Assembly: GCA_051294905.1 (NCBI GenBank)
Contig: CM119371.1
Coordinates: forward strand, 15,254,001-15,318,000
Length of the DNA stretch: 64,000 bases
Source of the DNA: Botryllus schlosseri
Lineage: Eukaryota
Direction: 5' to 3'
Part shown: positions 1,429 through 27,145 of the stretch, in pieces
How positions within the stretch are numbered: position 1 is the stretch's first letter
How the letters are laid out: each line of letters begins with the position of its first letter
Made by a program: the position numbers and the translations under genes
Notes under the pieces: generated by a model
What the model saw: the letters and a program-made list of their open reading frames with translations, nothing else
What the model was told of the DNA's origin: nothing
Databases searched by the model: none

Positions 1429-3819
1429 CTTCATATCCATATTCAGGTGCCGAGGGTGGCTTTGGCGCAGCCCCGTTCCCACCAGATGATGGCGAGACGG
1501 GCCTTTTCCCGCTTTCAATATCTCGACTGGAAGAGCCCCTTGGTGGGGATCCTGGAATGCGGTTGCTGGAATCTGAATAGGGCATTACTTCTGATGATTC
1601 GAGTACTGGAATTATACGATCCTTGTCACTGAGACAGAATTTAGCAACAAAAATCATACTTTTCATAATATAGTGAAATCCTTGATACCTATTTTGAGGT
1701 TGGTTTCAATGCTCTGACCAGATTCGGGTTCATTTCAATATGAATACACCATTCGATTGTATTTCGAAGTTCTGTACCTCCATGAAGCTCTTGAGATTTT
1801 AATATGTATTTTCGAAATAGGTGCAACACTAGCTATTGATTGAGTCAAGTTTGATTGAATTTTATCGCTCGTGTTCCCGGCTATAGGACTTCCCACAACG
1901 CTAAATTTGCCATGCTCATCGGTCAACTACACTGCGCATGTGCATGTGAGCATGATGACAGGAGCTGCATATCTATCGTTAGGTTGGTTATCTATACTCC
2001 TACGGTTGGACTTACCTTTTGAAATCTGTTGAACCGTGGGTTCTGCTGCCGAGGTAAGAGAGTCCAATAAGGTTTGCACATGTTTCGCTTTCTCTTCCTG
2101 GGACCGTTCGGTCTCCTCACACCTGCTACTAACAAAAATTGACATATAGCAATTTTCGAAAATGAATCAAAATTCACAAACACATATAATTTACAGCATA
2201 TTTCGCAAGCATTTTCATACTTTGAGGTGATGGGAACGAAGGGGAAAAATAGGGTGTTTCAAAAACAGGATGTTTTAAATTATATCGGATTTATCGGGCT
2301 AAATCTATTCACAAATGCCTCTCCTGCAGGAATCAGATAATCTCGCACATATCAACAACTCTACACTCATGTACAAAGCCCCGCCAATGTCGAAGCGGGA
2401 TTTCGCATCATTTCGCATTTAAATTAGTAGCGACCTCAACTTGATACCATACAACTGAACCCTTTTGACAAATGGTAATGTATCCCGTCAGAATATGTTA
2501 TACCCAACATTGGTAGGTTCTGCACTGTGAACCTTTTTCATATATTACAATTTAAGCTTCATTATAAGATCTTTGGTTGAAATTGATTGCATTTCAATTG
2601 CGGTCCACTCTATGCATGGCGCTGGCAGCGTAAAAAAAATCACCATCAAACGAGCATGCACCTTGACAATCTCAAAATTTTCTGCTGTGAGATTGACCCG
2701 CCATCACACAACGTCAAAAGCAAAATACACTACATATAGGTAGTCGGCCAATGATGTTCATCCAACCAATTAACGAAATTGATATCGTTGTTTGATGTAC
2801 AAAATCTAGCAGGCGTACATGGTCAATCTTGACTTCATATATATATTGTACTATAAAAACCAAATCCGTGTAATTGGGGTGTTGGCTACTACTGTGTAAC
2901 TTGTGAATGGGGTAATATTAGCATCAAGTATAGAAACCCGCTTTGCACTCTGATCAATGAATGTCACACGCCGAATACATTGTCTGGACTGACCTAGACC
3001 GTTACGGTGTAAGCTAATATTCCTTGCAAGTCGTCGTCGAATTTGTTGGCAAAGCGACGACAGATATTGATTTCATGGGATCATTATATTATTTGATTGC
3101 CCCAGTTGATACATTTGGCGATATTTAAAACGTCAATATGTATTTCAGCATTGTAGCATTTTGTGGCCCGACTCGTCTCTAGGCATCGTGTACAACTTAT
3201 ACATTTGTATACGCTATCACTTCACTGAAATGTTGGGTTGGAACTAGCAATATGACGTCATGAGGTTCACGTTCGCGTTCACACAGAACCTTTTAAAAAG
3301 GTTCACGACACGAATCTGAACCTTTCAAAGGTTCACACCATCCCCATTCTCTACGAAGTACAACAATTTTATTCTAATATTTCTTACTGAGATTTTTCTC
3401 GTGCCAGGCAGGAATTGCTACGATAGGAAATCACATTTATACAATGTGTGTGCAATGTGAATACGGAATGCGACATAGGACAATTTCATCCCGGTCTGTG
3501 TCAAACTTTCCGCAAGTAGAATATGCCATTGTTGGGATAGATTTTAGTTGGGCGTCAAATATCGCCGATAAAAACTCCAGCAGAAAATTTTTAAAAACTC
3601 TTTCACCTGGGAAGAAATTTCTTTTTTAGTTGACGCACGCCTCCTGGTAGTAGGTTACCCATAGAATACGAGTCGTCGTTCGAGACCTCACTTTCGGTGT
3701 AGGAAATCTCATCACCTGAAAAAATACGCATGTTCTATCCATCCGCCCAAGATCATAGAAGGGAGACCAACGTCAAGTCATACGCACCTTCGCCCTCGCA
3801 TTCCTTGGATTCCTGGACC
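1429..3819 (-). CDS. Unit F (E1, E2, E4, E5; E3 deleted; presumably continues beyond the left edge)
   Basis: Exons 3788-3819, 3607-3715, 2016-2122, 1429-1572; E2 (ends phase 2) joins E4 (starts phase 2) in frame. Confidence 0.7.
2510..3346. mobile_element. hAT-like MITE lacking its left end (GAGGTTCACG family)
   Basis: Ends aggttcacaccatcccca. Colinear with the element starting tagggatggtgtgaac at ~62063-63100 and with the right end at ~34290-34478. Confidence 0.8.
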
Positions 3820-4808
3820 CTGTTTGTAAATAGGGAGGTTAAAATCGAACTAATAAAACTGTAAAGACGCTTCACTGGTACTCGAAACTGCCAATAGACA
3901 GCATTGGATAATAATGACAATGACATGAGTCATCGAACATGAATCGAGAAATGATTCCAACGTTTCAAGCCAAATATGACTTGATGAATATTTCAAGGAC
4001 CGAAACTATATGCTCATTGCCAGCAAGAGTTAATTTGTCTCGAGCCTTCTCAAGCAAGATTGGTCGTATTGAAGCATACAAAACTAACGTTGGCGGAACA
4101 AAGACATCTGTGAAGTCCAAATGACTCGGCATTTTCACCAAGGGCAATTGAATAGGCGTTGAAACAATGAGCGGGAGGGCGGCTGAAATCCAAGAATATT
4201 TGAAGCACTAAATCTTCATTTATTGGAGTCCTATTAGTTCGTCGTGGGGAGGTCGCCGTCCATCAACAATAAAGTCTATTTCACCAGGCTGTACACAGCT
4301 CGGGAGGCAGCGACCAAGACAAGCTCTGCAGTATCCTGAATACATTTTTATGATCCTAATAAAAATTGTGTCCGTGAGTAAAAAAGAGATTTTAAAATGT
4401 ATCATATTCACCATTGTTTGGAATGATGACGGCGAATTATTATTATTATTGATAATTAACCGACACTTTCTCATCGTCAAATACCAATACATCCACTGAG
4501 CTCCATGTATTAACAATGTAATTCACTGCTTTCAATTCAGAAATACAATTAATGAACCGCGGGATATACTCTTAAATTTATGACTCGGCCCGCCAAGCAA
4601 TTTTCTGCTTTCATTTGACACGAGGGGAAAACAATTGCATAACCCAGCCATATTGAATGTCTCCGGTCATATGACTTGGTCAGGTTAATACACAAAGAGT
4701 TACGTCATTATCCATGAATAACAAAATGACTCGAGTCAAGTCAGAGAAAAATTGCAACTCGAGTCACTACAACCAAGGGCAAAACTTTTTTACTGAGTAC
4801 AACCTCAC

Positions 4809-7800
4809 CTTGTTGACTTGGCCTTGGGTGTCGACTTGGACATGGCCTTCCCAGCAGGTTTTGCAGTTGGCTCCCGTGAACTGTGATCTGTCGTTGATTC
4901 TGCAACTGAATTTTGGTATCAAATATTTCCAATACTATATGTCCGCGACATTTTGAAGGACGCAATAAACCGTACAGTCATAATAGTTATTGACAAATAA
5001 AATACCCACGCTGGCATAGTAGCTTGTAGCCTGCAAACAACTTCTAGTTTTGATCACAAACAGAACAGCACCGAAGAAAATATCATAGTTAACACAGGCT
5101 CTCAGCTACATCAAGAAAAAAGAGGAATATTGTTTCAAATCTGTCCAAAGAAAATATATTTGGGAATGAAGTGGAAAGATATTTCGCAGCAGACCTTGAG
5201 AGCGTGGAATTTGATGTTTTGAGTTACTGGAAAAGAGAAATAATTTTGCTCATCCCAAGGCTGATGCTTGAGAACTCGTAGGTGTACCTGCAACATTATC
5301 TCTATCAAAGAGAGAACTGTATAGCGCGAAAGAGAGAGAGATAGTTTCAATAAACAAGCCAAGTTTGGTGTACGGACGTTAAATTTTTTCTCATTCGGAA
5401 TTTCAGTCAATATTTGCGAATTAACTAATTCTAATCTAACTTGTAGAGCTTCTTGGAGGTACAGAACTTCAATATACATTTGAACAGTCTATCCATGTTG
5501 AAATGAACCCGAATATTTTCGGCTGACACTCGTCAGGGGTAATCGTCAGCAACTAGTTGAGTATCGGAAAGAGCGTTGTATATCAACAATCGTATCACAA
5601 AATATGACGTCACCTGCATGAAATTTCGAATGAGAGAGCGTTCAATGTACTATTTTTAGGTGGTACATGAACCCCTTTTGTTGACAGAGTTTTGGTTGGT
5701 GCATTTTGATAAAAGTCGACTCCAAGGCACACAAATGGAAATGTGAACATCCCCTTCCAACGACGTGAAATCTGTCGTCTCGATAATTACTCGCACAAAT
5801 CGGATTATTCAACAAATGTTTGCTGATCGCAGAATCAGATCATCGGGATCGTGACAGCGTCCGCAGGAACGCATAAACAAGCGTGTCCCCAGATTTATCA
5901 GATCACATGTAACACGCTAGGTTAGAAGCTCACCCTTAACTCATCCGCCTAAACTTTATGCTGACCTATCGAAGGCCATTAATTCTGCCATCAGCAAACA
6001 TCTGCTGGATAATCCAATTTGTGCGAATAATTATCGAGACGACAGATTTCGCATCGTTGGAAGGGGATGTTCACACTTTTATTTGTGTGCCTTGGAGTCG
6101 ACTTTTATCAAAATACACCAACCAAAACTCTGTCAACAAAAGGGGTTCGTGTACCACTCAAAAAACAGTACATTGAACGCTGTCCCATTCGAAATTTCAT
6201 GCTGGTGACGTCATATTTTGTGATACGATTGTTGATATACAACGTTCTTTCCAATTCTCTACTAGTTGCTGACGATTACCCCTGACGAGTGTCAGCTGAA
6301 AATATTCGGGTTCATTTCAATATGAATATACTATTCAATCTAATTTGGAAAAAATCGTGCAATAATAAATCTAATCTAATTCGGTAAAACTGTGTAGCTC
6401 TAATTCTAATTCAAATCTCATTCGAAAAACCGTATATCCCTAATTCGAATCCTAATATATCATTTAAAACGGAAGATTTTCTAGTTTTCCAAGTCTGGTC
6501 TCAGAAGCAATTTGGCTGTTGACCAGCAAAATCTCATACTGACCTTCATATCCATATTCAGGTGCCGAGGGTGGCTTTGGCGCAGCCCCGTTCCCACCAG
6601 ATGATGGCGAGACGGGCCTTTTCCCGCTTTCAATATCTCGACTGGAAGAGCCCCTTGGTGGGGATCCTGGAATGCGGTTGCTGGAATCTGAATAGGGCAT
6701 TACTTCTGATGATTCGAGTCGAGTACTGGAATTATACGATCCTTGTCACTGAGACAGAATTTAGCAACAAAAATCATACTTTTCATAATATAGTGAAATC
6801 CTTGATACCTATTTTCAGGTTGGTTTCAATGCTCTGACCAGATTCGGGTTCATTTCAATATGAATACACCATTCGATTGTATTTCGAAGTTCTGTACCTC
6901 CATGAAGCTCTTGAGATTTTAATATGTATTTTCGAAATAGGTGCAACACTAGCTATTGATTGAGTCAAGTCTGATTGAATTTTATCGCTCATGTTCCCAG
7001 CTATAGGACTACCAATAACGCTGAATTTGCCATGCTCATCGGTCAACTACACTGTGCATGTGAGCATGATGACAGGAGCTGCATATCTATCGTTAGGTTG
7101 GTTATCTATACTCCTACAGTTAGACTTACCTTTTGAAAGCTGTTGAACCGTGGGTTCTGCCGCCGAGGTAAGAGAGTCCAATAAGGTGTGCACACGTTTC
7201 GTTTTCTCTTCCTGGGGCCGTTCGGTCTCCTCACACCTGCTACTAACAGAATGACTTGTGGCGATTTTCGAGATAAATTCAGTTACCGTAACACATATAT
7301 ATCACAGCATATTTCGCAAGCATGTTTCATAATTTGAGGTGATGCAAACAAACATATCACAACCAGGCGTGTATCCAACAGAGAAAAAAGGGGCCTTTCG
7401 AGAACAGGATGTTATAAATTATATCGGATTTATCGGGCTAAATATAAGCACAAACGCCTCTACTGCGGAATCAGATAATCTCGCACACAATAAATACACT
7501 ACAGGCATATACATAACCCAGTCAATGTTGTAGCGGGAGACCTTATAATTTCGCATTCAAATAAGTAGCAACCTTAACTTGATACCATACAACAGAAGCA
7601 GTTTCACAAATGGTAATGTATCCCGTAGCACACCCACCGAACCCAGTTGAATTATCATGATATAGCACCACTGTGGTTATCGTAGATAACAGCAGAAAGA
7701 GAAACACAGAGATAATTTGACCCTAATTACCAAATGCGAAGCAGCGCGATAAAGTTATAACACAAAGATCTTGCCATTTTACGTTCAATTAAGAAAATGA

Positions 7801-8034
7801 TTTTCGTTTCCGTATCAAATCAGATTTCACAAATTAAAATGTTCAATGCGGAATCTGTTATGTATTTATAAAATTGACCATGAATTAGCTCGGCTGTTGG
7901 AATAACAACTGCCCACCTTGCTGATGTTCTGGTACTGGGGCCTGCCAAATCCTGCTGTTCTCTCACCGCCCCGGCAAAGGGGCTGCGTCCATCATCTCCA
8001 TCGGAAAGAGTTTTCAGCAAAGGATGCAAGAGAG
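4809..8034 (-). CDS. Unit E (chimeric E3*, E4, E5, short E6)
   Basis: Exons 7917-8034 (118 nt, ALLHPLLKTLSDGDDGRSPFAGAVREQQDLAGPSTRTSAR), 7130-7236, 6544-6687, 4809-4905; open frame. Confidence 0.7.
5486..6334. mobile_element. Foldback MITE (copy 2, duplicated with the array unit)
   Basis: Nearly identical to 371-1219 at offset 5115. Confidence 0.9.
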
Positions 8035-8497
8035 CTGTATAGTGGAAAAAAGAGAGAGAGTTTCATTAAACCAGTCAAGCTTGGTGTGCAAGATGTTAAT
8101 CAATTTCATGTTGATTTGCTATGGTTGCTGCGGTATTTCATTCATATTTACGTATTAACTAATTCTAATGTAATTTGGAAAAATTGTGTAGCTGTAATTC
8201 TAATACTAATCTAATTTGAAGAAAAATGTATGTCTCTAATTCTAATTTAATTTAGAAAAACAGTGTAACTCCAATTTCTAATACTTATCTAATTTGGAAA
8301 AAAATTGTGTGATTCTAATTCTAATCTCATTTGGAAGAGCTGTGTGGCTCTAATTCTATTCCAATTCGAACAAAAAAGTGTGTATCTTTAATTCTAATTG
8401 TAATTCAAATCCATTTCGTGAAACTGAAGATTTTCTAGTTTTCCAAGTCTGGTCTCAAAAGCAATTTGGCTGTTGACCAGCGTAATCTTATACTGAC

Positions 8498-11400
8498 CTT
8501 CATGTCCATGTTCAAGTGTCGAATGAGGCTCTGGCGCAGCCTCGCTCCCTCCAGATGATGGCGAGACGGGCCTTTTCCCGCGTCTAATACCTTGCCTGGA
8601 ACAACCCCTTCGCGGCGATCGTGGAATGCGGTTACTGGAATCTGAATGGAGTGTTTATTCTGATGATTCGAGCCGAGTAATGAAAATATACGATCCTTCA
8701 CTAAGAGTGAATTTATCAACGAGAATAATAGTTTTCATAATAAAGTGGAATCCTTGAAACCTCGGTAGTTCGTAACACAGCGTATGATACACGTCGTACA
8801 AATCCATGCAAGTAGAGAAAACGACATTTCTCTGAAGTCATGATCAACCCGCAGAATTATCACCAAACTTGAACAAACTATCGGTACCAATCTTTGGAAT
8901 GATCCTCATGTTCAGACTTTGAGAGCTTTTTAAGGTTGGTTTCAATCATTGGCCAGTGTTGGGATCAAGTCACTACCTTCGAGTCACGAGTCATTTCGAG
9001 TCATTGCACATTTTGACTCGAGCCAAGTCACTTGAATTTTGGAGGTGACTCGAGTCAAGTCGAGTCGAGTCAAGTCAAGCCACGAGTCAAGTCACAATTC
9101 AAGTCAAGTTGCCTTTTCGAAGTATGAGGCATGCTTACGTCAATGCATTTTGCTAGCTGTCTGAAATACAGATTGAGTGGTTATTGATGCTGGATCTATG
9201 AACAAATATAGAGTGAAATAGAAACGCAAGAAGGCGCTTTATTACTCACATATACGTAGAAATGCTTAACTACGTAAGTATAATTGCATACCCTCTGATT
9301 ATTATAGTTACCAGCCAAAATAGAGAATAGAGAGACGAGTTGATAAGATGCAATACATTGCCCATTTACAAATTGATATGATACAATTCCAGTCTGCGTC
9401 GATGGTTGCTGGATGTGTAAATTATATTGGAATTCAATTTCAATAAAACAGGAGGCTTGGTTAAGTTAGGAACAGAGAACAGAAGTACACATTTGCTATT
9501 TAATTACTTTACTATACTAGTTTACGGCAACGTTAGCTGTAAGCTTTGATCACTTCGTTTGTGATCAATTTATTTGTGAGGGAACAATGGAGGCTCAGTA
9601 AAACGCACGATCATTGAATGATTGGTCGCTCTCATGGGTTACACCATCTTTTCGCGTATAATCCGAACGTATGCAAGATACAATGATTATTATCAACATC
9701 GATTGCTTGATGACTCGAAATTGACTCGTGAATTTTGCTCCGAGTCTCGAGTCAATCCACATTTCTGATACGCCGAGTCAAGTCAAGTCAAGTCATTTTA
9801 GCAAAGTGACTCGAGTCAAGTCAAGTCATACAAAAAAGGTGACTCGAGTCTGACTCGAGTCATCCCAACACTGTCATTGGCCAGATTTTAATATGTATTT
9901 TTGAAATAAATACAATACTAGCTTTCGATTAAGTCAACCTTGATTAAATTGTAGCGCTCGCGTTGCCAGCAATAGGACTACCGTAACTTTCCAAGTATAG
10001 TACGCCCCCATGGATAATGCGCATACTTAAAATGACATGCAAATTCTGGAAAAAAGCCTGCACCCATGTATAGTACACACACTGCATTCACAGTACATGA
10101 ATAGTTGTGTTTTGGTATACGATGTTATTGTGTTGGTGGTGTCACTGTTCAACAATCATGACGTAACGATCGCTGATCATTCAACAGTTAGCGGCATGGT
10201 CTCTAAATGATAGTAGATAGCAGATAAAGCCTGCGATAGTTCAGACCAGCGACAAGACATCTTGCGCACGAGGCCTATTACAGATGCGATTGCTCAGTCC
10301 TACGTTTATCTCGTGCGCACCAGGAATGTTGGAGATGCGATAAATTAGCGAGGATTGCTGAGCAGGTAAGGAGCAATCAATGACCTAATTTCACTCGCGT
10401 ACAAACGGCTAACCAACTTAACAGGAGATCACACGCTGTTGTGCAGTGCAGACGCTTCTCAGTAATTGGCAGCGCGTAACACTGATAATACGAATTACTG
10501 GGCACGATTGCTGAATGTGATGCGCGATTAATACGAACATGAGGAAAGGCGTGATTTCAAGTGTTATTTCGAGGGAGATTTTTTTAATGCTTGTTGCACC
10601 CGTGCACCCTCGATTTTAGGACTAAAAATCTGTAAAATTTTGTGCATTATACAGAGAAAATTTCGGTACTAATAATGCTGATTTTGCCCAGCTCAGCAGT
10701 CAACCGCATTGTACATGTGAGCGTGACGACAGGAGCCACTTATCCATCTTTATGTTGATAATCTATACTCCTACAGTTAGACTCACTTCTCGAAACCTGT
10801 TCTGCTGGCGGGAGAAAACTGTTTTGGTGCCGCTCTTGTGCTGCAGAGAGAAGAGAGTCCAATAAGGCCTGCAAAGGTTTCGTTATCCCTCCCATAGATG
10901 GTACAGTTTCCTCACACCTGCCATTTACAAAAAGTGACTTGTAGCAATTTTCCAAAATAAATTTCGTTACTGTAACACAGGGGTGGGCAAACTTTCGAGC
11001 TCGCGGGCCGCATTCAACATTTGAATCCATTCGCGGGCCGCACTATATAAAATTAGGATTATAAACTAAAACGCAGTATTGGTATTTGATTATATAGTGA
11101 GGACATGTATACTTATTTAAAACAATCCAAACATTGCTTTGATGATATCGTACACGCGTCAGAAACAGTGACGAGATTTCATAGGCTGGTCGACCTCAAT
11201 AACCAATTTGTTAAAACTATAGAGATGGAAGACGGTTGTCCTGATTCTTAGATCAGGATTGAATTTTATATCTGTGAAGAGAGATCTGTTCATAGATTGA
11301 CTAATTCCACTTTTGGTTCAGTTCGAGGAAATACAATGCTGACAGCATTCGTAACCATGTTAGCTTCAAACACGCTTCTACCATATGTGTGGATAAAACA

Positions 11401-12872
11401 TGAATACCATAATTTTACGCATACAGAGAACGAATCTACCAAAGACATGCGCGAATCGTTTTTTTATAAGCACATCACTGAAATATTTAAAACTGGAGTG
11501 GTCAATCTGAAATCACACTCGGAATCCGAATTATGTCAATCTCGATTAGGACTTCTGTGATGAGTAGAAGCTGCAACCTTTTAAACTGCGTGGGACTTGA
11601 GATCGGGCTGTAACGCCAGAAATTAAACATAAAAAATAATATAGGAAGCATTTACAATGGAACATGTGGTTCTCAAACTTTTCAAGACCTCCTCTTATGA
11701 TGGTAAAAGATTCCGCGCTCCCCTAATAGCGTCATATCACAAAATGAAACCAGGATGCTAGCAATCCTAATTCCTAACTGGTAGTTTGATGGCATGGAAG
11801 GTTACGACTGTGGATGAGAAATTTGTGAATATGAAATTTAGACTAAATACAGAGCAATAAATCTGAATGAGATGTTTATTTTTTAGTTGATCTCAGCTAT
11901 GCGCCTCCCTTCAGATGCTTTCACGCCCCCAAGGAGGTGCGCCGCCGCCAGTTTGAGATCCACTGCCTTAGAATTATCATGGTGAAATATACCAAGCAAA
12001 AGTTAAATCAAGTCCCTGCAATGATGCGATTTTTAATACGCATTTGATCAATATTTTTAATAAGTTTCTTTAGACTCTCGCGGGCCGCACAGAACGGTGT
12101 GGAGGGCCGCATGCGGCCCGCGGGCCGTAGTTTACCCACCCCTGCTGTAACACATATTTCGCAGCATATTTCACAAGCATGTTTTGTACTTTGAGGTTAT
12201 ACAGAACAACATACCACCACCAGGCGCGTAGTAAAGGGAGAAAAATAGGGGGTGTTTTGATACAGGATTTTTTAAATTATATCGGATTTATCGGGCTAAA
12301 TATATGCACAAACGCCTCTACTGCAGGAACCAGATAATCTCGCACATATCAACTCCGCCAATGTTGTAGCCGGAGACGTTATGATTTCGCATTCAAATAA
12401 GAAGGGGCCTTGACTTGATTTCATACAACAGAACCCGATTTTTCAATCTTTTTTATTCCGGCCCGTAGCACACCCACGGAACCCAGTTGTATCATTAAGA
12501 TAAAGCACAACTTAGGTAAGCGAAGATAACAGCAAAAACAGAAACGAAGACATAATTTGTCCTTGATTACCAAAAGAGAAGCAGCCCGATCAAGTTACAA
12601 CACAAAGATCTTGCCATTTTTCGGTCAAACAAGAACATGATTCCAATTCCGCATCAAATCAGATTTCACAAATAAAATGTTCAATGAGGAATCTGTTATG
12701 TACTGATAAAATCTAAGATGAATTAGTTCGTTTGTTGGAATACCAACTGCCTACCTTGCTGATGTTCTGGCACTCGGACCTGCCAAATCCTCCTGTTCTC
12801 TCATCGCCGCGGCAAAGAGACTGCTTTCCTCATCTCCATAGAAAAGAGTTTTCAGCCAAGGTAGCAAGACAA
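8498..12872 (-). CDS. Unit D (chimeric E3*, extended E4, E5)
   Basis: Exons 12755-12872 (118 nt, phase 1-2), 10787-10917 (131 nt = 107+24), 8498-8641; open frame. Confidence 0.65.
8954..9873. mobile_element. hAT MITE with GAGTC/AAGTC subterminal repeats
   Basis: TIR cagtgttgggat...atcccaacactg; exact 8-bp TSD tcattggc. Relatives at ~36063, ~42918-43584, ~52590-53035 and ~60125-60372. Confidence 0.92.
9981..10666. mobile_element. Tc1/pogo-like MITE in a TA target (unit D)
   Basis: ta|ccgtaactttcc...gaaaatttcgg|ta; absent from the homologous site in units A, E and F. Confidence 0.75.
10978..12144. mobile_element. hAT (Charlie-like) MITE with a nested second MITE
   Basis: TIR caggggtgggcaaac...gtttacccacccctg, exact TSD ctgtaaca, subterminal gcgggccgc motifs; nested gtggttctcaaact...agtttgagatccactg at ~11663-11966. 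Confidence 0.9.
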
Positions 12873-13250
12873 CTGTATAGTGGGAAATAGAGAGAGAGTT
12901 TCATTAAACCAGCCAAGCTTGGTGTCACGACGTTAATCAATTTCATGTTTGATTTGCGATGGGCTGAACTTGATTTTTGCTGCTAATTCTTTCTCATTCG
13001 CAATTTCATTCATATTTGCGAATTAACTAATTCTAATCTAATTTGGAAAAATTGTGTAGCAGTAATTCTAATCCTAATCTGATTTGGAAGAAATGTGTAG
13101 CTCTAATTCCATTCCGATTCGATCAAAAAAGTGTGTATCTTTATTTCTAATTGTAATTCAAATCCATTTAGTGAAACTGAGGATTTTCTAGTTTTCCAAG
13201 TCTGGTCTCAGAAGCAATTTGGCTGCTGACCAGCGTAATCATATACTGAC

Positions 13251-16200: not shown

Positions 16201-17702
16201 TTACCTAAAAAAAAGAAAATTTTGACCTAAAAAATCAAAATTTGGACTTTTTTTGACCTAAAAAAAATGAATTTTGACCAAATTTTGACCTAACGTATGC
16301 AAATTAGGTGTTTTCCCAAATAATGTCAAAATTGTACCAGTTATCTACATTTCCGGTTGTAACTGGCTGTCCCAACGAAGTAGTTTGGCCTGAAAAAACG
16401 TTTTTGGCTTAGAAACAGGCGACTTTGTACATATAAAAAACAATATTTTACCGAAATCTGGCTCTATGAAGAATTCCAGTGGTTGCAATACGTATTATGG
16501 CGGAAATAATTTAGAAAAATTGTAGTACAACGAGAGATACTTTCCTATATTCTTGTGTAAAAAGTGCATGTCCTTACTTGCCAAGGACGTTCAACAGCAG
16601 CAGTTGGCTGACAACACTCAAGTTGTGCAATGTGCATACACTACTGGTGACGCAATATGTTGCTTCATTCTGACAATGTTGTCTATTACAATTTTTCATC
16701 ATGTGCTTCTCAATATAAGAATGATGCCCCAGTTAGGATATTGCGGTACGTTGACCATTGACCGTTGATGATTCAGTATGAGCAGACAATGCGCCGTGTA
16801 CAACAGTAGGCCTATAAAGTAGACTACAAGCTGTAAAATATCAAATGATACGTTCACAGACACTGCAAAATCTATGATACAAACGAAATAAAGACGTCAA
16901 AAAAATTTTGACTTTATGAACAATTTTGACAAATTTTGACCTAACGCTACAATTTTGACAAAATTTTGACAAATTTTGACATGTCAAAAAAAAACCGCCC
17001 CAGTGATTACTTTACTTTTCTTCGAAATTATAATGAAACGTCGGTCTTGGCCGTTAGAGTCTCGAGTCATATGACTTTGTACGAGTCATGCGCAATGACT
17101 CGAGTCCAAGTTGAGTCAATACACAAATTGACTCGAGGTGAATCATTTCCGTATTTTGAGAAAATGACTCGAGTCAAGTCGAGTCATCAGAAATCGTGAC
17201 TTAAACGGGACTCATGTCATGACATGACTTGAGTCTTTACAACCCTTTATCAAGTACAACAATTTGATTCCATATTTCTTAATGAGAGTTTTCTCGTGCC
17301 GGGCATGCATTGCTACAATAGGAAATCACATTTGAAATATTTGTGTGCAATGTGAATATGCAAGGATGGACAATTTCTGTTTCAAACGTTGCGCAAGTAG
17401 ATACATGCCATAGTTGGGGTAGATCTTATTTAGGCGTTGAATATTGCCGATACGAACGAACTCAAGCAGAAATTTTTCCAAAACTCCTTCACCTGGGAAG
17501 AAATGTCTCTCTTGGTTCAACAAAACCTGGTAGTAGGTTAGCCATAGAATACGAGTCGTTGTTCGACACCTCACTCTCGCTTGAGGAAATCCAGTCACCT
17601 GAAAAAACACTCATGTGCTATCCATCCGCCCAAGATTAGAAAAGGGAGACCAACGTCAAGTCATACACACCTTCCCCCTCGCATTCCTTGAGTTCCTGGA
17701 CC
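13251..17702 (-). CDS. Unit C (E1, E2, shortened E3, E4, E5; no E6)
   Basis: Exons 17671-17702, 17493-17598, 15462-15524 (new acceptor cctttacgcag, 63 nt), 14692-14798, 13251-13394; open frame. Confidence 0.7.
13799..14571. mobile_element. Same pogo-like MITE at the orthologous site of unit C
   Basis: Colinear with 9981-10666, same insertion point ggacta|. Confidence 0.75.
15877..17246. mobile_element. GAGTC-type hAT MITE with a nested hAT MITE (16186-17002)
   Basis: Outer cagggttgt...acaaccct; inner tagggcggtttttt...aaaaaaccgcccca with exact TSD gtgattac and ttttgac subterminal repeats. Confidence 0.88.
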
Positions 17703-18820: not shown

Positions 18821-21800
18821 CTGGACGACATAATCTTGGGAGTCGACTTTGACTTGAGCGTCGACTTCAACTTAGGCATCAACTTTGACTTGGGAGTCGA
18901 CTCGGACTTGGCCTTCCCAGCAGGTCTTGTAGTTGGCTCCTGTGATCTGTGATCTGTCATTGATTTTGCAACTGAAGTTTAGTGTCAAATATTTCCAATA
19001 CTATATGTCCGCGAAATTTTGAAGAGCGTCAACAAGAATATTCCTCTCGCTCTGAGAAATTCAATTCCAAACCGCCATCGCGTTACTTATACCGTACAGT
19101 CATAGTAGTTATTGTGACGAATAAAATAGCCATGCTGGCATAGTGCCTTGTAGCCTGCGAACAACCTGTAGTCAGAACAGCACCATAGAAAAAGACATAG
19201 TTAACACATGTTCTCCACCACATCAAGAAAAAAGAGGAAGATTGCTTCAAATATGTCCAAAGAAAATATAGTAGGGAATGAAGTGAAAAGATATTTCACA
19301 ACAGAGCTTGAGATCATGGAATTTCGCTACTGCTCTCCGTCTCCATCAAAAAGAGATTTCAGCAAAGGATGCACGAGAACTGTATAGCGCGAAAGAGAGA
19401 GAGAGAGAGAGTTTCATTAAACGAGCCAAGTTTGGTGTACAGACATTAATCATTCTAATGCTTGATTTGTTGAGCTGAACTTGAATTTTGCTGTTAATTT
19501 TTTCTCATTCGGAATTTCATTTAAGATTTGCGCATTAACTAATTCTAATCTGATTTGAAAAAAAAACATGTAGCTCTGCAAATTCTAATACTAATCTAAT
19601 TTGAAAAATTGTGTAGCTGTAATTCTAATTCTGAAGTAATTTGGAAAAAAATATGTAGCTCTAATTCTAGTACAAATCTAATTTGGAAATAATTGTGCCA
19701 TTCTAAATCTAATGTAATTTGGTAAACCTGTGTAGCTATTCTTCTAATACTAATCTAATTTGAAAAGAAATTGTGTATTTTTAAGTATAATCTAATTCGG
19801 AAATACTGTGTAGCGCTAATTCTAATTCGAAAAAAAACTGTATATCTCTAATTCTAATATTAATCGTAATCCATCCCGTATAACAAAAGATTTTATAGCT
19901 TGCAAGTCTGGTCTTAGAAGCAATTTGGCTGTTGACTGGCGTAATCTAATACTGACCTTCATATCCATTTTCAGGTGCCGAGGGTGGCTTTGGCGCAGCC
20001 CCGCTCCCACCAGATGATGGCGAGACGGGCCTTTTCCCGCTTTCAATATCTTGACTGGAAGAGCCCCTTGGTGGCGATCCTGGAATGCGGCTGCTGGAAT
20101 CTGAATAGGGCATTAATTATGATGATTCAAGTCAAGTACTGAAATCATACGCTACTTGTCACTAAGAGTGAATTTATCAACGAGGTCATAGTTTTCATAG
20201 TACAGTGAAATCCTTGAAACCTAATTTGCGGTTGGTTTCAATGCACAGGCAAGATTTGGGTTATGAACAGCAGGGGCCCGAAAACTGATCCCTGAGCACG
20301 TGAGCATGAGGACAGGAGCTGCATATCTATCCTCGGGTTTGTAACCTATGGTCCCATAGTTGGACTCACTTTTTGAAAGCTGTTGAGCCGTGGGTTCTGC
20401 TGCCGAGGGAAGAGAGTCCAATAAGGGGTGCAGACGTTTCGTTTTCTCACCCTCAGGTCGTACGGTCTCCTCACACCTGCTACTAACAAAAAATGACTAG
20501 TGGCGATCTTCAATAATAAATTCAGTTACTGTAACACATATATAACACAGCATATTTCGCCAGCATGTTTCATATTTTGAGGTGAGGCAAGCAAACACAC
20601 CACAACAACGCGCGTAGCCAACGGAGAAAAAAAAGGGCCGTTACGAAAACATGTTATAAATTATATTGGATTTATTGGGCAAAATATATGTACAAATGCC
20701 CCCACTGGAAGAATCAGATAATCTCGACATAATAACAACACTATACGCCTATACAATTTTACGTTAAAATAAGAACTTGATCTTGGGTCATTATCAAATC
20801 AGATTTCGCAAATTAAAATGTTCTATGTTCTGTTATGCATTTATAAAATTGACGACGAATTAGATTGGTTGTTGGAATAACGACTGCCCACCTTGCGGGT
20901 GTTCTGGTACTCGGTCCTGCCAAATCCTGCTGTTCTCTTCCTGCCGCGGCAAAGGGACTGCATGCTTTCTTTTTGCTGTTTGTTGATTGCAGGTTAAAAT
21001 CGAACCAACCAGAAACGTTAGGGAAAATATACTCCTAACTAGTACTCAAAACCACCATTGGATGACGCTGGATAATGAATACAATCATTCGGGTACTCGA
21101 ATCAGAATCGAGTAATAATTCTAAAGATTGAAGCCGAGTAGAGAGGGGAAATTTAGGCTCCATTCTCGGCCAATGGGTTCACAAGATAAAAAAAAGGCTG
21201 GTAACCACTGGGTAAGAGTATATTTTACGAAATGGGAGTTTTATTTCTAAATTGAAAGCAGTGAATTACATTGTTAACACATGCTCCTAACTGGAAATGT
21301 TTATATGGGGCTTGGTACGATAGCTACAGGTTTCATGATGACATGATATATTAGTCTCTCTGCATTGTGTCTATATCTTATAACTTAGACATTATGCTTA
21401 CTCTTTACCAAGTACACCAATTTTATTCTAATATTTCTTAATGAGATTTTTCTGGTGCCAGGCATGAATTGCTACAATACGAAATCACATTTACACAATG
21501 TGTGTGCAATGTGAATAAGCAAGGTCGTACAATATCATCCCGCTCTGTTTCGAACTTTGCACAAGTAGAATATGCCCTTCTTGGGGTAGATTTTATTTAG
21601 GCGTTGAATATTGCCGATACGAACGAACTCAAGCAGAAATTTTTCAAAAACTCTTTCACCTGGGAGGAAATTTCTTTTTTAGTTGACGCGCGCCTCCTGG
21701 TAGTAGCTTACCCATAGAATACGAGTCGTGACTCGACACATCACTGCAGGTGGAGGAAATCTCGTCACCTGAAAAAAAAAACATGTGCTAACCATCGGCC

Positions 21801-21872
21801 CAAGATCAGAGAAGAGAGAGCAACGTCAAGTCATACGCACCTTCCCTCTCGTTTTCCTTGGGTTCCTGGACC
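18821..21872 (-). CDS. Unit B (E1-E6) of the exon-cassette array
   Basis: Exons 21841-21872, 21660-21768, 20892-20975, 20370-20476, 19957-20100, 18821-18971; splice sites as in unit A, all open in the same frame. Confidence 0.75.
19535..19860. repeat. Intronic degenerate ~35-40-bp satellite (ctaattctaatctaatttggaaaaattgtgtag)
   Basis: Present next to every E5 copy with variable copy number (also ~1220-1345, 6335-6460, 8155-8410, 13020-13165, 23875-24048). Confidence 0.85.
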
Positions 21873-22889
21873 CTGTTTGTAAATAGGCAGGTTAAAATCG
21901 AACTAATAAAAATGTAAAGACGCCTCACTGGTACTCGAAACTACCAATGGACAGTGTTGGATGATGATGCCAATGATACGAACACTCGAGTCTGAATCGA
22001 AAAATTATGTTAATGATTCGAGTCAAGTACGACTTGATGAATATTGCAAGTACTTAAACTATATGCTCATTCCCAGCAAGAGTTAGTTCGACTCGGGCCT
22101 TCTCAAGTTAGATTGGTCGTATTGAAGCATACAAAACTAACGTTGGTGGAACAGAGATATCTGGGAAGTCGTAAATGACTCAGCATTTTCACCAAGTGTA
22201 ATTGAACAGGTGATGAAACGATGAGCGGACGGGTGGCTGAAATTCCAAGAATATTAGGCGCACTAATTCTTCGTTTATTGGAGTCGAAGGAGAACCCGTC
22301 TTATCAGTTTGTCGCGAGCAGGTCGCCGTGGAGTATAATTTAAGTCGGTATTATGGCAAAAAGACAAAGACAGACACTCGGCTAAGGGAGGGCGCGTTTC
22401 GGAAGCACTGCTACTTTCCATCAACAATAAAGTCTATTTCACCAGGCTGTAGACTGCTCCAGAGGCAGCAACCAAGACAAGCTTTGTAGTATCTTCAATA
22501 CATTTTTCATTATCCTAATAAAAAATCGTATCAGCGGGTTGAAAAAGCGTTCAAAATGTATCATGTGGTGTGGACCATTGTTTTGAATTATGACTGCGAT
22601 AATTAATCAACACTTCCTCGTTGTCAAATACCAACAGATCCACAGGCCACCATGTATGTAACTCACTGCTTTCCATTTAGAAATACAAATGAAACAGGAT
22701 ATAGGCCCACCAACGTATTTTCTGCGATCATTTGGCCCGCGGGGATAATAATCGCCCACTCCTGCCATATTGAATGTCATATGACTTGGTCGGGTTAATA
22801 CACAAATTGACTCAAGTCAAGTCAAAGAAAAATTGCAACTAGAGTCATTAGAACCCAGGGCGAAACTTATTTACAGAGCACAAGCTCAC

Positions 22890-25800
22890 CTGGACGACTT
22901 GGTCTTTGGCGTCGACTTTGGCGTCGACATGGCCTTTGGCGTCGACTTTGACGTCAACTTGGTCTTTGGTGTCGACTTTGGCGTCGACTGTGACGTCAAC
23001 TTGGTCTTCGGCATCGACTTTGACGTCAACCTGGCCTTGGGTGTCGACTTCGACGTCAGCTTGGTCTTTAGTGTCGACTTTGACGTTAACTTGGTCTTCG
23101 GCATCGACTTGGACGTCAACTTGGCCTTGGACGTCGACTTGGACGTCAACTTGGCCTTGGACGTCGACTTTGACGTCAACTTGGCCTTGGACGTCGACTT
23201 TGACGTCAACTTGGCCTTGGGCGTCGACTTTGACCTGGCCTTCCCAGCAGGTCTTGTAGTTGGCTCCCGTGATCTGTGATCTGCTGTTGAATTCGCAACT
23301 GAATTTTGGTGTCAAATATTTCCAATGCTATATGTCTGGGACATTTTGCAGGACGTCATACATCATACAGTCATAGTAGTTATTGAGACGAATAAAATAC
23401 CCATGCAGGCATAGGAGCTTGTAGCCTGTGAACAATTTCTAGTTATAATCACCAACAGAACGGCACTACTGAAGAAAAAGCCTTAGTTAACACAGGTCTT
23501 TTCACACATGCTCTCAACTACATCAAGAAAAAAGAGGAAGATTGCTTCAGATCTATCTAAAGAAAATATATTAGGGAATGAAGTGGAAAGATATTTCTCA
23601 GCAGAGCTTGAGAACACAAAATGTGATGTTTTGAGTTACTGGAACTCAGCTCAAGAACTCGCAAGTGCGCGTGCAACATCACCTCCATCGGAAAGAGTTT
23701 TCAGACAAGGATGCGAGAGAACTGTATGGTGGGAAAAAGAGAGAGAGTTTCATTAAATCAGCCAAGCTTGGTGTACAGAAGTTGATCGTTCTCATGCTTG
23801 ATTTGCTATGGGCTGAACTTGAATTTTGCTGCTAAGTCTTTCTCATTCGGAATTTCAATCAAAATATGCGAATAAACTAATTCTTATCTACTTCGTAAAA
23901 AATTGTGCAATTCTAATTCTAATCTGATTTGGTAAAACTGTGTAGCTCTTATTCTAATACTAATCTAATTTGGAAAAAATGTGTATTTTTAATTCTAAAT
24001 GAAATTTGGCAAAACCGCATATCTCTAATTCTAATTGTAATTCTAATCCATTTCGTTAAGTTGAAGATTTTCTAGTTTTCCAATTCTGATCTCAGAAGCA
24101 ATTTGGCTGCAGACCAGCGTAATCTCATACTGACCTTCATATCCATATTCAGGTGCCGAGGGACGCTTTGGCGCAGGCCCACTTCTACCAGGTGATGGCG
24201 AGACGGGCCTTTTCCCGTGTCTAGTACCTTGCCTGGAAGAGCCCCTTGGTGGCAATCCTGGAATGCGATTGCTGGAATCTGAATAGAGTATTAGTTCTGA
24301 TGATTCGAGTCGAGTACTGAAATTATATGATCCTTGTCACTAAAGACTGGGTCACATTCTCGTAAAATCGTACCTCGTACGATTCTCACTCTCTCACTAA
24401 ATTGGCCAAAACGAGAGATTACGTCATCGCTGAACGAAAAGTGAGAATAAAGGTAACGCATGTTGTCGCTGCCAAGCGTCAGCCGAGCCTCTTGCGACCC
24501 CTTATTGCAGCTATCAATTCTCACAATTTAGCTCGGCAAGTCCACAATACGCTCGTACGAATCGCTCTCTCCATGTAAGGTCTGTGTAAGGTCCGCGTAA
24601 AAAACGAGAGAGAGGAGGCTCTTTACGCCGAGCAAATGAGAGAAGAGAAGAGAAAGGAGAGAAACTAAAGAAATGCTTTACGCGCCCTATACGCCATACG
24701 ATTTTACGTACGTGACTGATGCTTAAGAGTGAATTTATCAACGAGAATTATAGTTATCCTAATCGAGTGATATCCTTGAAACCTCGATCGGTCATAACAC
24801 AGCTTACGATAAACGTCGTACAACTCCATGCAAGTAGCGGAAACGACACCTCTCTGAAGTCATGATTAACCCACAGCATTATCACCAAACTTGAACAAAC
24901 TACCGGCACCAGTCTTTGCAACGATCCTGATGTTCAGATTTTGAGGGCTATTTTGAGGTTGGTTCCAATAAACTGGCCTGATTTTATTATATATTTTTAA
25001 AGTACGACACTAGCTTGCGATGAAGTCAAGTTTGATTGAATTTTAGCGCTCGGGTTGCCCGCTATAGGACTGCCAATAACACCAATTTTGCCCGGCCCAG
25101 CAGTCGACCTCATTGTGTATGTTAGCTTGACGACAGGAGCTGCATATCTATCCTTAGGTTGGTAATTAATACTCCTACAGTTGGACTTACTTTTTGAAAG
25201 CTGCTGAGCAGTGGGTTTTGCTGCCGACGAATGAGAGTCCAATAAGGTCTGCAGACACTTCGTTTTCTCTTCCTTAGACCGCACGGTCTCCTCACACCTG
25301 CTACTAACAAAAAATGACTTGTAGCGATATTCGAAAATGAATTCAGTTACTGTAACACATATATATCAAATCATATTTCGCAAGCATGTTTCATACAGAG
25401 AAATAAAAGGGGGCGTTTCGCGAACAGGATGTTATAAATTATATCAGATTTGTAAGGCTAAATATATGTACAAATGCCTCTACTGCAAGAATCACACAAT
25501 CTCGCACATAATAACAACACCATACATAACCCCGCCAATGTCGTAGCAGGAGACCTTATGATTTCGCATTCAAATAAGTAGCAACCTCAACTTGATACCA
25601 TACAACAGGACCAGTTTCACACATGGTAATGCATCCCGTCAGAATATGTTATACCCGACGTTTCAATCTTTTTATATTTCAGCCCATAGCCATAGCACAC
25701 CCTAAGAAACCAGTTGTATTGTTAAGATATAGGCAATTCCTAATTAGCTGGTTCGTGGTACAGAACTTGAATATAGCTATCAATACAACATCCATTGTAA

Positions 25801-27145
25801 GAAGTGTGCAGCTAACTCTTGAAAAGAGGCACCCGAAAATTCTACGAGTTCAATGAATATTCTTTTATGATGGATGTTGTATTGAAAGCCATGATATAGG
25901 CCTAGCACCACTTTGATAAGCAAAGATAACAGCAGAAAGAGAAACCAAGGTATAATTTGTTCTTGATTACCAAAAGCATAGCAGCGCGATCAATTTACAA
26001 CACAAAGATCTTGCCATTTTACGTTCAAAGAAGAACATGATCTCGAGTCATTATCATATCAGATTTCACAAATTAAAATGTTCTATGTGCAATCAGTTAT
26101 GTATTTATAAAATTCACGAATTAGCTCGGTTGTTGGAATAACAACTGCCCACCTTGCTGATCTTCTGGTACTCGGTCCTGCCAAATCCTGTTGTTTTCTT
26201 ACCGCCACGGCAAAGGGACTGCGTGTTCTCTTTTTGCTGTTTGTTGATTACAGATTAAAATCAAACCAACCAGAAACGTTAAGGAAAATAAACTCCTCAC
26301 TAGTACTCAAACGCAACGTTGGATGGCGCTGGATGATGAATACAATCATTCGAGTAATCGAATCAGAATCGAGAAATAATGCTAAAGATTGAAGCCGAGT
26401 AGAGAGAGATGATTTCAACGAGGGGAAATTTAGGCTCCAATCTCGGTCAATGGGTGTACGAGTTAAAAAAGGTTGGTAACCACTGGGTTTGAATATATTT
26501 TACAAAATGGCAGTTTTATTCCTAAATTGAAAGCTATGGATTACATTGTTAACATATGATGCTGACTAGAAATGTTTATATGAGGCTTGGTATACGATAG
26601 CTACAGGTTTCATGATGACATGATACATTTGTCTCTCTGCTTTGCGTCTATATCTTATCATGTAGACAAATTATGTTTACTCTTTACCATGTACAACACA
26701 TGTATTCTAATACTCCTCAATGAGATTTTTCTCGTGCCAGGCATGAATTGCTACTATAGGAAATCACATTCAAACTATGTGTGTGAAATGTGAATATGCA
26801 AGGATCAAGAATTCCATCCCGGTTTGTTCCAAACTTTGCACAAGTAGAATATGCCATTGTTGGGGTAGATTTTATTTAGGCGTCAAATATAACCAATACG
26901 AACTCAAGCAAAAATTTTTCAAAAACTCTTTCACCTGGGAAATTTCTTTTTTGGTTGGACCACACTTCCTGGTAGTCGGTTACCCATAGAATACGAGTGG
27001 TCACTTGACACCCCACTGCAGGTGGATGAAATCTCGTCACCTGAAAAAGACGCGCATGTTCTATCCATCCGCCCAAGATCAGAGAAGATAGAGCAACGTC
27101 AAGTCATACATACCTTCCCCCTCGCTTTCCTTGGGTTCCTGGACC
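22890..27145 (-). CDS. Unit A of the tandem exon-cassette gene (exons E1-E6), low-complexity basic repeat protein of unknown family
   Basis: GT-AG exons E1 27114-27145, E2 26935-27040, E3 26153-26236, E4 25191-25297, E5 24135-24278, E6 22890-23298. Phases 2/1/2/2/1/1/2 join without stops: VQEPKESEGEGDEISSTCSGVSSDHSYSMGNRLPG..KKKFPSKKRTRSPFAVAVRKQQDLAGPSTRRSARCEETVRS..LLDS..NSSNRIPGLPPRGSS..GKRPVSPS..PEYGYEVANSTADHRSREPTTRPAGKARSKSTPKAKLTSKST...SSR. Start codon not established. Confidence 0.75.
22891..23240. repeat. Coding minisatellite of 30-bp and 12-bp units inside exon E6 of unit A
   Basis: Plus-strand unit ~GACGTCAACTTGGCCTTGGRCGTCGACTTT, about 11 copies; minus strand reads KSTPKAKLTS / KSTSKAKLTS. 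Confidence 0.95.
23500..23725 (+). pseudogene. Decayed hAT transposase C-terminal dimerisation-domain fragment, intronic and antisense to the array gene
   Basis: Translation NEVERYFS..CDVLSYWN..RATSPPSERVF matches the hAT C-terminal E..RY / D.L.YW / ATS..SERVFS motifs. Homologous remnants at ~110-210, ~5100-5325, ~19215-19385, and partial ones at ~7990-8040 and ~12830-12880. Confidence 0.8.
24344..24723. mobile_element. Probable PIF/Harbinger-type MITE, unit A only
   Basis: Inserted into gtcactaa|gagtg, which is empty in other units; TAA duplication; degenerate TIR agactgggtcaca / cgtgactgatgct. Confidence 0.6.

Follow-up and report, generated by a model that had tools for sequence, protein, structure and literature searches.

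Within single genes, multi-exon cassettes of a few kb are repeated in LPA (kringle IV type 2) and in nebulin and titin (super-repeats), where any copy number stays in frame because the coding length of the cassette is a multiple of three. Those cassettes encode folded domains under purifying selection, whereas at the locus described here pN/pS is ~0.9 and frame and composition seem to be all that is kept. In primates, the Olduvai (DUF1220) triplets of the NBPF genes form intragenic tandem higher-order repeats of ~4.8 kb, with several small exons per repeat and each domain encoded by a two-exon doublet; in outline, their amplification was in frame, copy number varies by paralogue and spread was by segmental duplication (PMC9584774, PMC9313022, PMC13028154).

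The locus was studied in a 64,000-nt window of the Botryllus schlosseri genome (the whole stretch of DNA that was analysed, to which positions refer unless a contig is given). It resembles NBPF in its kb-scale, head-to-tail, multi-exon units, which preserve the frame and vary in number between paralogues. Sequence likeness to NBPF is absent, however, and the DUF1220/Olduvai Pfam profile was unmatched in the translations of exon types E2-E6. The cassettes here have six exon types and encode a product predicted to be disordered throughout; their amplification is older (units are 70-93% alike), and expression of the locus is putative. The kind of gene is known from the NBPF Olduvai triplets, and this member of it is new and apparently undescribed. 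We consider it probable (roughly 0.6) that the window contains most of one member of a lineage-restricted family of five loci, each of which is a single gene.

All 28 exons of the initial annotation were recovered on the minus strand at the lengths and places it gave, and its claim of intact GT-AG sites holds for each of them (AG acceptor and GT donor). Joined, they form a frame of 3212 nt that is indeed open, with 0 stops in frame 1, compared with 48 and 22 in the remaining frames. The exons of the window copy are:

27114..27145, minus strand: unit A E1, 32 nt
26935..27040, minus strand: unit A E2, 106 nt, encoding a serine-rich acidic stretch and a conserved Met
26153..26236, minus strand: unit A E3, 84 nt, encoding the basic stretch KKRTR
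25191..25297, minus strand: unit A E4, 107 nt, conserved hydrophobic LLDSL motif
24135..24278, minus strand: unit A E5, 144 nt, invariant KRPVS core
22890..23298, minus strand: unit A E6, 409 nt, 30-nt tandem repeats giving a 10-residue K/S/T unit
21841..21872, minus strand: unit B E1, AG/GT, in frame
21660..21768, minus strand: unit B E2, 109 nt
20892..20975, minus strand: unit B E3, 84 nt
20370..20476, minus strand: unit B E4, 107 nt
19957..20100, minus strand: unit B E5, 144 nt
18821..18971, minus strand: unit B E6, 151 nt
17671..17702, minus strand: unit C E1, AG/GT, in frame
17493..17598, minus strand: unit C E2, 106 nt
15462..15524, minus strand: unit C E3, 63 nt, 5' side shortened with frame kept
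14692..14798, minus strand: unit C E4, 107 nt
13251..13394, minus strand: unit C E5, 144 nt, followed directly by the chimeric E3* of unit D with no exon between
12755..12872, minus strand: unit D chimeric E3*, 118 nt
10787..10917, minus strand: unit D E4, 131 nt, 24-nt in-frame insertion
8498..8641, minus strand: unit D E5, 144 nt
7917..8034, minus strand: unit E chimeric E3*, 118 nt
7130..7236, minus strand: unit E E4, 107 nt
6544..6687, minus strand: unit E E5, 144 nt
4809..4905, minus strand: unit E E6, 97 nt
3788..3819, minus strand: unit F E1, AG/GT, in frame
3607..3715, minus strand: unit F E2, 109 nt, joined in frame to E4 as unit F has no E3
2016..2122, minus strand: unit F E4, 107 nt
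1429..1572, minus strand: unit F E5, 144 nt, the gene continuing past the window start

The tandem units are ~4-7 kb long (typically ~5 kb), lie head to tail and contain up to six exon types each. By type, the lengths are 32 nt for E1 (four copies), 106/109/106/109 nt for E2, 84/84/63 nt for E3 with two chimeric exons of 118 nt, 107 nt for E4 (five copies, and one of 131 nt), 144 nt for E5 (six copies) and 409/151/97 nt for E6. The array had been described as six cassettes; whole cassettes are repeated, but the array is a mosaic in which A and B are complete, C-D-E form a composite and F lacks E3. The donors of the E6-to-E1 junctions (^ marks the exon border) are CAG^GTGAGC (22890/21872), CAG^GTAAGG (18821/17702) and AAG^GTGAGG (4809/3819), and the acceptor at all three is ...ACAAACAG^GG. 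The presence of inserted repeats in the introns is backed by very high DNA-run depth at three intervals (8551-9852, 15712-17664 and 25477-26127), which mark intronic high-copy insertions. Homology links the 5' part of the unit E E3* to intron 5 of unit A (7990-8704 matches 23677-24343), and by analogy we expect the acceptor and 5' part of the unit D E3* to derive from the same intron sequence. A 'SERVF'-like motif might point to exonised hAT-transposon sequence in E3*, but on the opposite strand Pfam matched no hAT transposase or dimerisation domain, nor anything else, in window:7906-8214:+ or window:23487-23756:+. A longer E5 exon, for which the frame stays open past the donor in some copies, was rejected, as a stop lies four codons beyond the donor in 13 of the 30 copies.

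The bounds first proposed, 1429-27145, do enclose exons, but the gene as now modelled begins at ~28300 and has 12 further exons past the window start. At its 5' end we identified:

28327..28336, minus strand: TATA box TATATAAATA, putative promoter, inside a ~180-nt block with 96-100% identity across all five arrays
28196..28305, minus strand: exon 0, a 5'UTR of ~95 nt free of upstream ATGs, with the start codon at 28209-28207

The coding part of exon 0 is 14 nt (MDFQ plus 2 nt), its donor is AAAA^GTGAGT at 28196/28195 and its phase is compatible with E1. The position of the TATA box suggests a transcription start at ~28305. The surroundings of the TATA/exon 0 block are ~88-90% alike between C1 and C16, and the block itself occurs exactly five times in the genome, once at the head (5') of every array. 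Two other first-exon candidates (28979-28948 and 28428-28406) were set aside, because the donor of 28209-28196 is the best of the three and because this candidate has the TATA block that is conserved. Extension of both ends gives 41 exons, 4640 nt and 1547 aa, from ATG to AGG^TGA with all splice sites AG/GT. E6 of unit F and units G, H and (in part) I are at C1:15237610-15253697, and the predicted stop lies 11.3 kb beyond the window start. A conserved AATAAA occurs ~756 nt past the last E6 in three arrays. We also noted a candidate terminal exon, an open stretch of 41-44 codons ~620-640 nt downstream of the last E6, the acceptor of which is weak.

All exons are phase-compatible, and therefore the reading frame of an mRNA of this gene would run from the ATG across all cassettes. 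Translation would end at the last E6 donor if left unspliced, because AG^GTGA then reads as Arg-stop, as is the case for the E6 donor of unit A. Each member of the family would thus comprise one TATA promoter, a short ATG first exon and then about six to ten cassettes of ~5 kb. Supporting one gene per array are the single TATA/ATG exon in each of the five arrays, compared with at least 35 copies of E5, and the unbroken frame from the ATG.

Tunicates have spliced-leader trans-splicing and operons, and each cassette, or each of the blocks A, B, C-D-E, F, G and H, could instead be a cistron of its own. Its 5' end would come from an internal promoter or from spliced-leader addition at the acceptor of E1, its start would be the E2 Met and its stop would overlap the E6 'donor'. 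The in-frame Met is kept in 20/20 copies of E2, which together with trans-splicing would allow separate cistrons and counts against the one-gene model. Every intact E6 ends in AG^GTRA (Arg-stop when unspliced), and for E1 plus the part of E2 upstream of the Met the stop test is weak (2.3 expected, P about 0.10). The donor-stop overlap is without weight, however, because a phase-2 donor with GTRA yields a stop automatically, and the G at donor +5 is retained in 17/17 intact E6 although a stop codon would not require it. E1 and the 5' part of E2 lack any indel in 20 copies, versus ~5 predicted from intron density over 85 nt. Each array has a single promoter/ATG exon, phased with E1, and no canonical poly(A) hexamer (AATAAA/ATTAAA) occurs within 600 nt past E6 of units A and B. 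Thus, we regard separate cistrons as unlikely, and retain the reading of one gene per array.

The genome contains five arrays. E5 has at least 35 full copies, all within the arrays, plus five weak or partial matches elsewhere. Four arrays were compared in detail, and the C17 array at 1.83-1.86 Mb was seen through search matches. All E1 copies (20/20) are 32 nt with AG/GT and all true E5 copies (30/30) are 144 nt; E6 varies from 97 to 793 nt, with length 1 mod 3 and a donor close to AG^GTRAGG in 17 of 18 copies. Consensus-like acceptors and donors are kept for all six exon types, in 20-30 copies each. The growth by whole-cassette duplication that had been proposed is borne out by the number and make-up of cassettes, which vary among the arrays examined: the C16 array has one extra unit and lacks E5 of unit E, and in the C17a array unit A is missing, as are parts of B, E, F and G. 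Damage in the other arrays affects E3 of unit C (C16), E2 of unit H (C16, C17) and E6 of unit H (an inverted C1 copy). Unit order and quirks are common to the four arrays examined, so the amplification of cassettes preceded the copying of arrays. The array probably arose by unequal tandem duplication and was afterwards copied whole to other places.

Coding blocks had been proposed to be under selection for frame, and indel phase, missing stops and the contrast at exon borders show that they are. Excluded before counting were the frameshifted E3 (C16), the degenerate E2 of unit H (C16, C17) and nine BLAST hits of low similarity. In four of the five arrays, 9/9 exon indel intervals are multiples of 3, compared with 28/109 in intron flanks of +-150 nt. 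Among 397 unique exon variants, 16.1 that create a stop were expected and 0 were seen. Stops are present in 0/120 exon copies, whereas within 20 codons outside the borders, in the same frame, they occur in 3-20 of 20-30 copies per border. Neither chance nor the youth of the copies accounts for this pattern of indels and stops. The amino-acid sequence evolves almost neutrally (pN/pS = 0.88 overall), and therefore selection is on frame and composition and not on sequence. Frame, splice sites and composition would be kept by selection, and individual residues hardly at all.

The same contrasts between exon and intron in indel phase, stops and borders contradict the idea that the array is not a gene, but a macrosatellite or a composite of mobile elements in which pieces happen to be open and flanked by GT-AG. 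The many repeats in the introns and the presence of more than one open frame in E5 and E6 fit that idea. However, E5 is confined to five arrays apart from the five weak or partial matches, and splice-site consensus is kept across six exon types, so we judge it very improbable.

Reads were mapped from three RNA-seq runs labelled as the same species, at a sampling of 6-13% of the reads (1.1-1.9 thousand million letters per run). Exon-only bins received no depth, the predicted junctions received no joint, and ~98% of the aligned reads were partial matches to intron repeats. Run X1 was rejected as RNA, since its contigs cover introns and it is therefore DNA. A single transcript spliced from all cassettes, and a function for it, are therefore predictions. 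Expression is presumably limited to tissues or stages outside those sampled.

The lack of exon reads in these subsampled runs would also be expected of a recently dead family, in which the arrays are unexpressed relics and the intact frame is a leftover or the result of gene conversion. In the comparison of positional orthologues between C1 and C16 (~252 exon substitutions, several in-frame length changes), pN/pS is 1.02; a value near 1 is pseudogene-like and, with the scattered damage in other arrays, counts against the one-gene model. An annotated homologue is also lacking from the collections searched. Yet the frame is kept through changes that postdate the separation of C1 and C16, in retained exon copies without a stop, the promoter/first-exon block is far better preserved than its surroundings, and none of the 41 exons of the window copy has a stop or other defect such as a decayed pseudogene would show. 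We consider a dead family unlikely, slightly more so than separate cistrons, and continue with the single-gene reading.

The predicted 1547-aa product is basic (pI ~9.9, 266 K+R versus 170 D+E), rich in Ser, Lys and Pro, and has 56 S/T-x-x-D/E and 38 S/T-P sites. It falls on the disordered side of the Uversky plot and is non-membrane (maximum 19-residue hydropathy 1.06); from our own reading of the hydrophilic N-terminus, a signal peptide is lacking. The components of each unit are a cluster of serines and acidic residues, NLS-like stretches that are basic, the short hydrophobic motif LLDSL, the core KRPVSPS and a K/S/T-P tail that varies in length. The product is probably nuclear, and we would guess that it functions as a phospho-regulated nuclear or chromatin scaffold.

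The initial annotation recognised no known family, and Pfam, protein and profile searches gave none. Exon by exon, the translations of E2-E6 matched no Pfam family at E up to 0.1, the LisH, SRP40, Treacle and linker-histone domains included; a match to ACP53EA was at chance level (14 bits versus a cut-off of 25). Pfam searches of several ORFs from introns and flanks gave nothing usable. The E5 peptide had no match among longer proteins, nor did the E5 profile among proteins of 25-83 aa, and the best score in the ESM Atlas (0.81) was under lead level. The sole match of an exhaustive profile search (1.84 thousand million representatives), P0001, is a long repeat protein of bacterial type in which GKRAVSAS recurs, and was rejected as a chance likeness to the KRPVS core. 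Lacking an E5-like protein in the public collections searched, the locus has no independent gene model. Acidic serine clusters alternate with basic stretches rich in Lys/Pro/Ala in nucleolar phosphoproteins such as Nopp140 and treacle and in the K/S/T-P tails of histone H1, as they do here. The likeness to Nopp140 and treacle extends to repeated units, basic charge, disorder and NLS-like stretches, and is one of composition, not ancestry.

A more speculative proposal, which we consider doubtful, is that the array is a length generator, producing from one promoter a ladder of disordered proteins that range in size from one to eight units. Cassettes are frame-symmetric and each E6 donor doubles as a stop (AG^GTGA/GTAA), so skipping of a cassette, retention of an intron or polyadenylation after any E6 could yield variable lengths. 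Selection would then act on length, charge pattern and phospho-sites and not on sequence. If true, the family would be young and lineage-born and would supply polymer-like scaffolds of the nucleus or of condensates; it would perhaps be germline-specific and would be one that has recruited former intron sequence as a new exon (E3*).

On the single-gene reading, the locus shows that an open frame of 1500 residues can escape both three RNA-seq runs and standard annotation by homology. Strict selection for frame together with a pN/pS near 1 is the mark of a disordered protein selected for composition; such proteins are hard to find and hard to distinguish from pseudogenes. If expressed, the gene would be a clean non-primate case of growth by amplification of multi-exon cassettes. 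With five paralogous arrays at differing stages of gain, loss and decay, the rules of this growth become measurable: which rearrangements survive, how an intron becomes a new exon and how the frame is kept despite drift.

The window is eukaryotic DNA (~40% G+C) and was placed at C1:15254001-15318000 of the 495-Mb assembly, C1 being contig CM119371.1. Window positions 1-27500 are occupied by units of ~4-7 kb arranged head to tail, with 70-93% similarity between them. Each unit is a cassette of up to six exon types, E1 to E6; units A-F lie inside the window and units G, H and I beyond its start. All 28 exons of the initial annotation were recovered on the minus strand at the lengths it gave, all flanked by AG at the acceptor and GT at the donor. 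Their ordered join is, as had been claimed, a 3212-nt open frame with 0 stops (the other two frames contain 48 and 22). The proposed extent, 1429-27145, holds for these exons and is too short for the gene, which extends upstream to a putative first exon (exon 0) and past the window start. There is firm support for these exons being gene-like.

The genome contains 35 full copies of E5, every one inside five arrays:

C1, analysed window, minus strand: array 1
C1:15549132-15595000, + strand: array 2, ~275 kb from array 1, inverted and near-identical
C16: array 3
C17: arrays 4 and 5, namely the one analysed (C17a) and one at 1.83-1.86 Mb known from search matches

The inverted C1 array lies head to head with the window array, with exons and flanks 98-100% identical and introns of differing length. 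Its E6 of unit A has one more 30-nt repeat, and its E6 of unit H carries a frameshift. It represents a very recent segmental duplication in inverted orientation, or else the second of two haplotypes in one assembly.

Extension of both ends, which the initial annotation had proposed, yielded a promoter/ATG exon block upstream and further units downstream:

28365-28185, upstream of unit A: block 96-100% identical in all five arrays
28336-28327, minus strand: TATA box, TATATAAATA, inside the conserved block
between the TATA box and the ATG: ~95 nt without ATG, in the conserved block
28209, minus strand: ATG, with G at -3 and at +4
from the ATG: coding part of exon 0, 14 nt, ending in AAAA followed by donor GTGAGT
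downstream, past the window start: E6 of unit F, then unit G (five exons), then unit H (six exons)
after unit H: partial unit I (E5, E6 and a 2.4 kb tail)

The surroundings of the conserved block are ~88-90% alike between C1 and C16. Exon 0 is compatible in phase with E1, and the block has exactly five genome copies, each array having one at its 5' end. Upstream of the promoter, a 459-nt insertion (30886-31344) is missing in both the inverted C1 copy and C17a and has a 79% alike copy elsewhere in the window.

From the ATG to E6 of unit H, 41 exons give 4640 nt with 0 stops and all sites AG/GT. Left unspliced, the last E6 donor reads AGG TGA, for a product of 1547 residues. An AATAAA lies ~756 nt 3' of the last E6 and is conserved in three arrays: C1, where it follows the unit-H E6, and C16 and C17a, where it follows the final E6; within 600 nt 3' of E6 in units A and B there is neither AATAAA nor ATTAAA. 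The reading frame would end at the unspliced last E6 donor, with AATAAA downstream as putative polyadenylation hexamer. Unit I, followed on C1 by ATTAAA, is a second copy of the 3' end of unit H, in a frame that does not match E6 of unit H. The gene's final 5 kb (part of intron 4, E5, E6 and the 2.4 kb tail) occurs as a tandem duplication at ~90% identity (C1:15235200-15242800), and the resulting partial unit I has no in-frame join to E6 of unit H.

To tell selection from young duplicates still undecayed, we aligned all E1-E5 copies of four of the five arrays, including 150 nt of flanking intron at either end. Left out before counting were a frameshifted E3 (unit C of C16), degenerate E2 copies in unit H (C16 and C17) and nine low-similarity BLAST hits that are not true copies. 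In exon columns all nine distinct gap intervals have a length divisible by three (3, 3, 9, 3, 3, 12, 3, 15 and 24 nt), as the initial annotation had said of the length differences, vs 28/109 in the flanking introns; by our own arithmetic, the probability of 9/9 at the intron proportion is ~5e-6. At intron density ~30 gap intervals would be expected over the 512 exon columns, vs the 9 seen. None of 397 distinct exon variants creates a stop (16.1 expected; Poisson P ~1e-7), and the model's frame is free of stops in all 120 retained exon copies. Within 20 codons outside the exon borders, stops occur in 3 to 20 of 20-30 copies per border; one lies four codons beyond the E5 donor in 13/30 copies, which fixes that border. 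The length of E6 ranges from 97 to 793 nt and is 1 modulo 3 in 17/18 copies, and 17/18 end in AG followed by GTRAGG. These indel, stop and border contrasts support the proposed selection for frame.

Amino-acid change is close to neutral. Over all pairs the pN/pS ratio is 0.88 (corrected values for single exon types, 0.68-1.44), and for positional orthologues it is 1.02 (C1 vs C16), 0.56 (C1 vs C17a) and 0.77 (C1 vs the inverted C1 copy). Taken with the frame contrasts, these values indicate that selection has kept frame, splice sites and composition, and hardly the residues.

Unit order and several quirks are common to the four arrays examined:

unit C: without E6
units D and E: begin with a chimeric E3 (E3*)
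units F and G: without E3
unit D: 24-nt insertion in E4

Thus, cassettes were amplified before the whole array was copied. Later changes are array-specific: the C16 array has an extra unit and lost E5 of unit E, and C17a lost unit A and parts of other units. The growth by whole-cassette duplication first proposed is supported. The neighbours left by the changes are phase-compatible, as would be about half of random intron-to-intron joins (our arithmetic from exon phases). In E3* of unit E, the acceptor and ~first 45 nt (8034-7990) are homologous to intron 5 of unit A (7990-8704 matching 23677-24343) and the remainder to E3 (7663-7988 matching 25903-26224), so that a former intron became exon, in frame, at a duplication breakpoint. 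The intron-5 piece may be hAT-like, a resemblance that Pfam did not confirm.

Other repeats were noted. Intron 5 of every unit contains a 40/79-nt tandem array (CTAATTCTAATCTAATTTGGAAAAA…) (6366-6450, 8159-8358, 13027-13109, 19539-19826 and 23877-24047). The introns between E5 and E6 in units F and E hold pairs of inverted 357-nt arms, ~92% alike (365-720/867-1223 and 5480-5835/5982-6338). Each carries an open frame of 65-95 codons (…SAISKHLL.NPICA…); the arms probably represent a mobile element, although Pfam returned nothing for them. Elsewhere are two opposed blocks of interstitial telomere-like repeats, (CTAACC)n at 49418-49511 and (TAGGGT)n at 49577-49719, and two tandem 319-nt copies, 98% alike, at 55805-56438.

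Several observations argue for one gene: one promoter/ATG exon per array vs at least 35 cassette copies, a frame unbroken over seven E6-to-E1 joins, E1 acceptors kept in 20/20 copies, E6 donors kept including a +5 G not required for a stop codon, and no indels in E1 or in columns 1-79 of E2. The cassettes could instead be separate genes, given an in-frame Met in E2 (20/20 copies) and E6 donors that would every one read as a stop, as does any phase-2 GTRA donor. The stop test on the stretch before this Met is weak (2.3 expected, P ~0.10), and trans-splicing, which would suit separate genes, occurs in tunicates.

Reads from 6-13% of each of three RNA-seq runs with the same species label (X9, X11 and X13) were mapped to window 7900-27400, alongside an older run, X1, which was rejected as RNA because its contigs cover introns and which is DNA. 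RNA depth is confined to 8551-9852, 15712-17664 and 25477-26127, and ~98% of mapped RNA reads continue into unlike sequence. DNA depth there is in the thousands, vs 4-70 for unique sequence, which marks these stretches as high-copy intronic elements. The RNA reads on them come from both strands, and many loose read ends fall at element borders (8953/8954, 9823, 15977 and 17193). In this sample, exon and unique-intron bins have zero or near-zero RNA depth (including 13108-15060, 20269-20919, 21571-22221, 22873-23523 and 26779-27400), and no joint matched a predicted junction, the check first suggested for the model. Thus, the locus is silent or nearly silent in the sampled runs, which counts against the model without refuting it. 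Of the one large gene originally claimed, the frame stands, unbroken over 41 exons, and matching RNA joints were missing from these runs; the one-gene reading, with a single transcript through the cassettes, is reasonably supported, and we put its probability at roughly 0.6-0.65.

The architecture, in which a multi-exon cassette has been amplified in frame within a gene, is of a kind already known. Examples are the Olduvai triplets of NBPF genes, LPA KIV-2 and nebulin. By sequence, the present gene belongs to none of the three.

The predicted product matches no known family, as first stated: Pfam on the exon translations and a search of E5 against longer or similar-length proteins in a word-indexed collection found nothing, and an Atlas search gave no lead. 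An exhaustive profile search gave one match, judged spurious. The predicted sequence agrees with the expected disorder and S/P/K-rich composition (disordered side of the charge-hydropathy plot; S 17%, K 10%, P 10%). The pI is 9.9, and maximum 19-residue hydropathy is 1.06, with no hydrophobic segment; by our reading, the N-terminus does not appear signal-peptide-like. A second frame is also open in all six E5 copies of the window (1429-1572, 6544-6687, 8498-8641, 13251-13394, 19957-20100 and 24135-24278), continues ~20 codons past the donor, and is probably an effect of composition. Each unit of the product would comprise:

E1-E2: acidic serine cluster
E2-E3: basic NLS-like stretches
E4: short conserved hydrophobic LLDSL motif
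E5: invariant KRPVS core
E6: K/S/T-P tail from 30-nt repeats

The whole product contains 38 S/T-P and 56 S/T-x-x-D/E sites. Our best guess is that it may serve as a nuclear, phospho-regulated scaffold.
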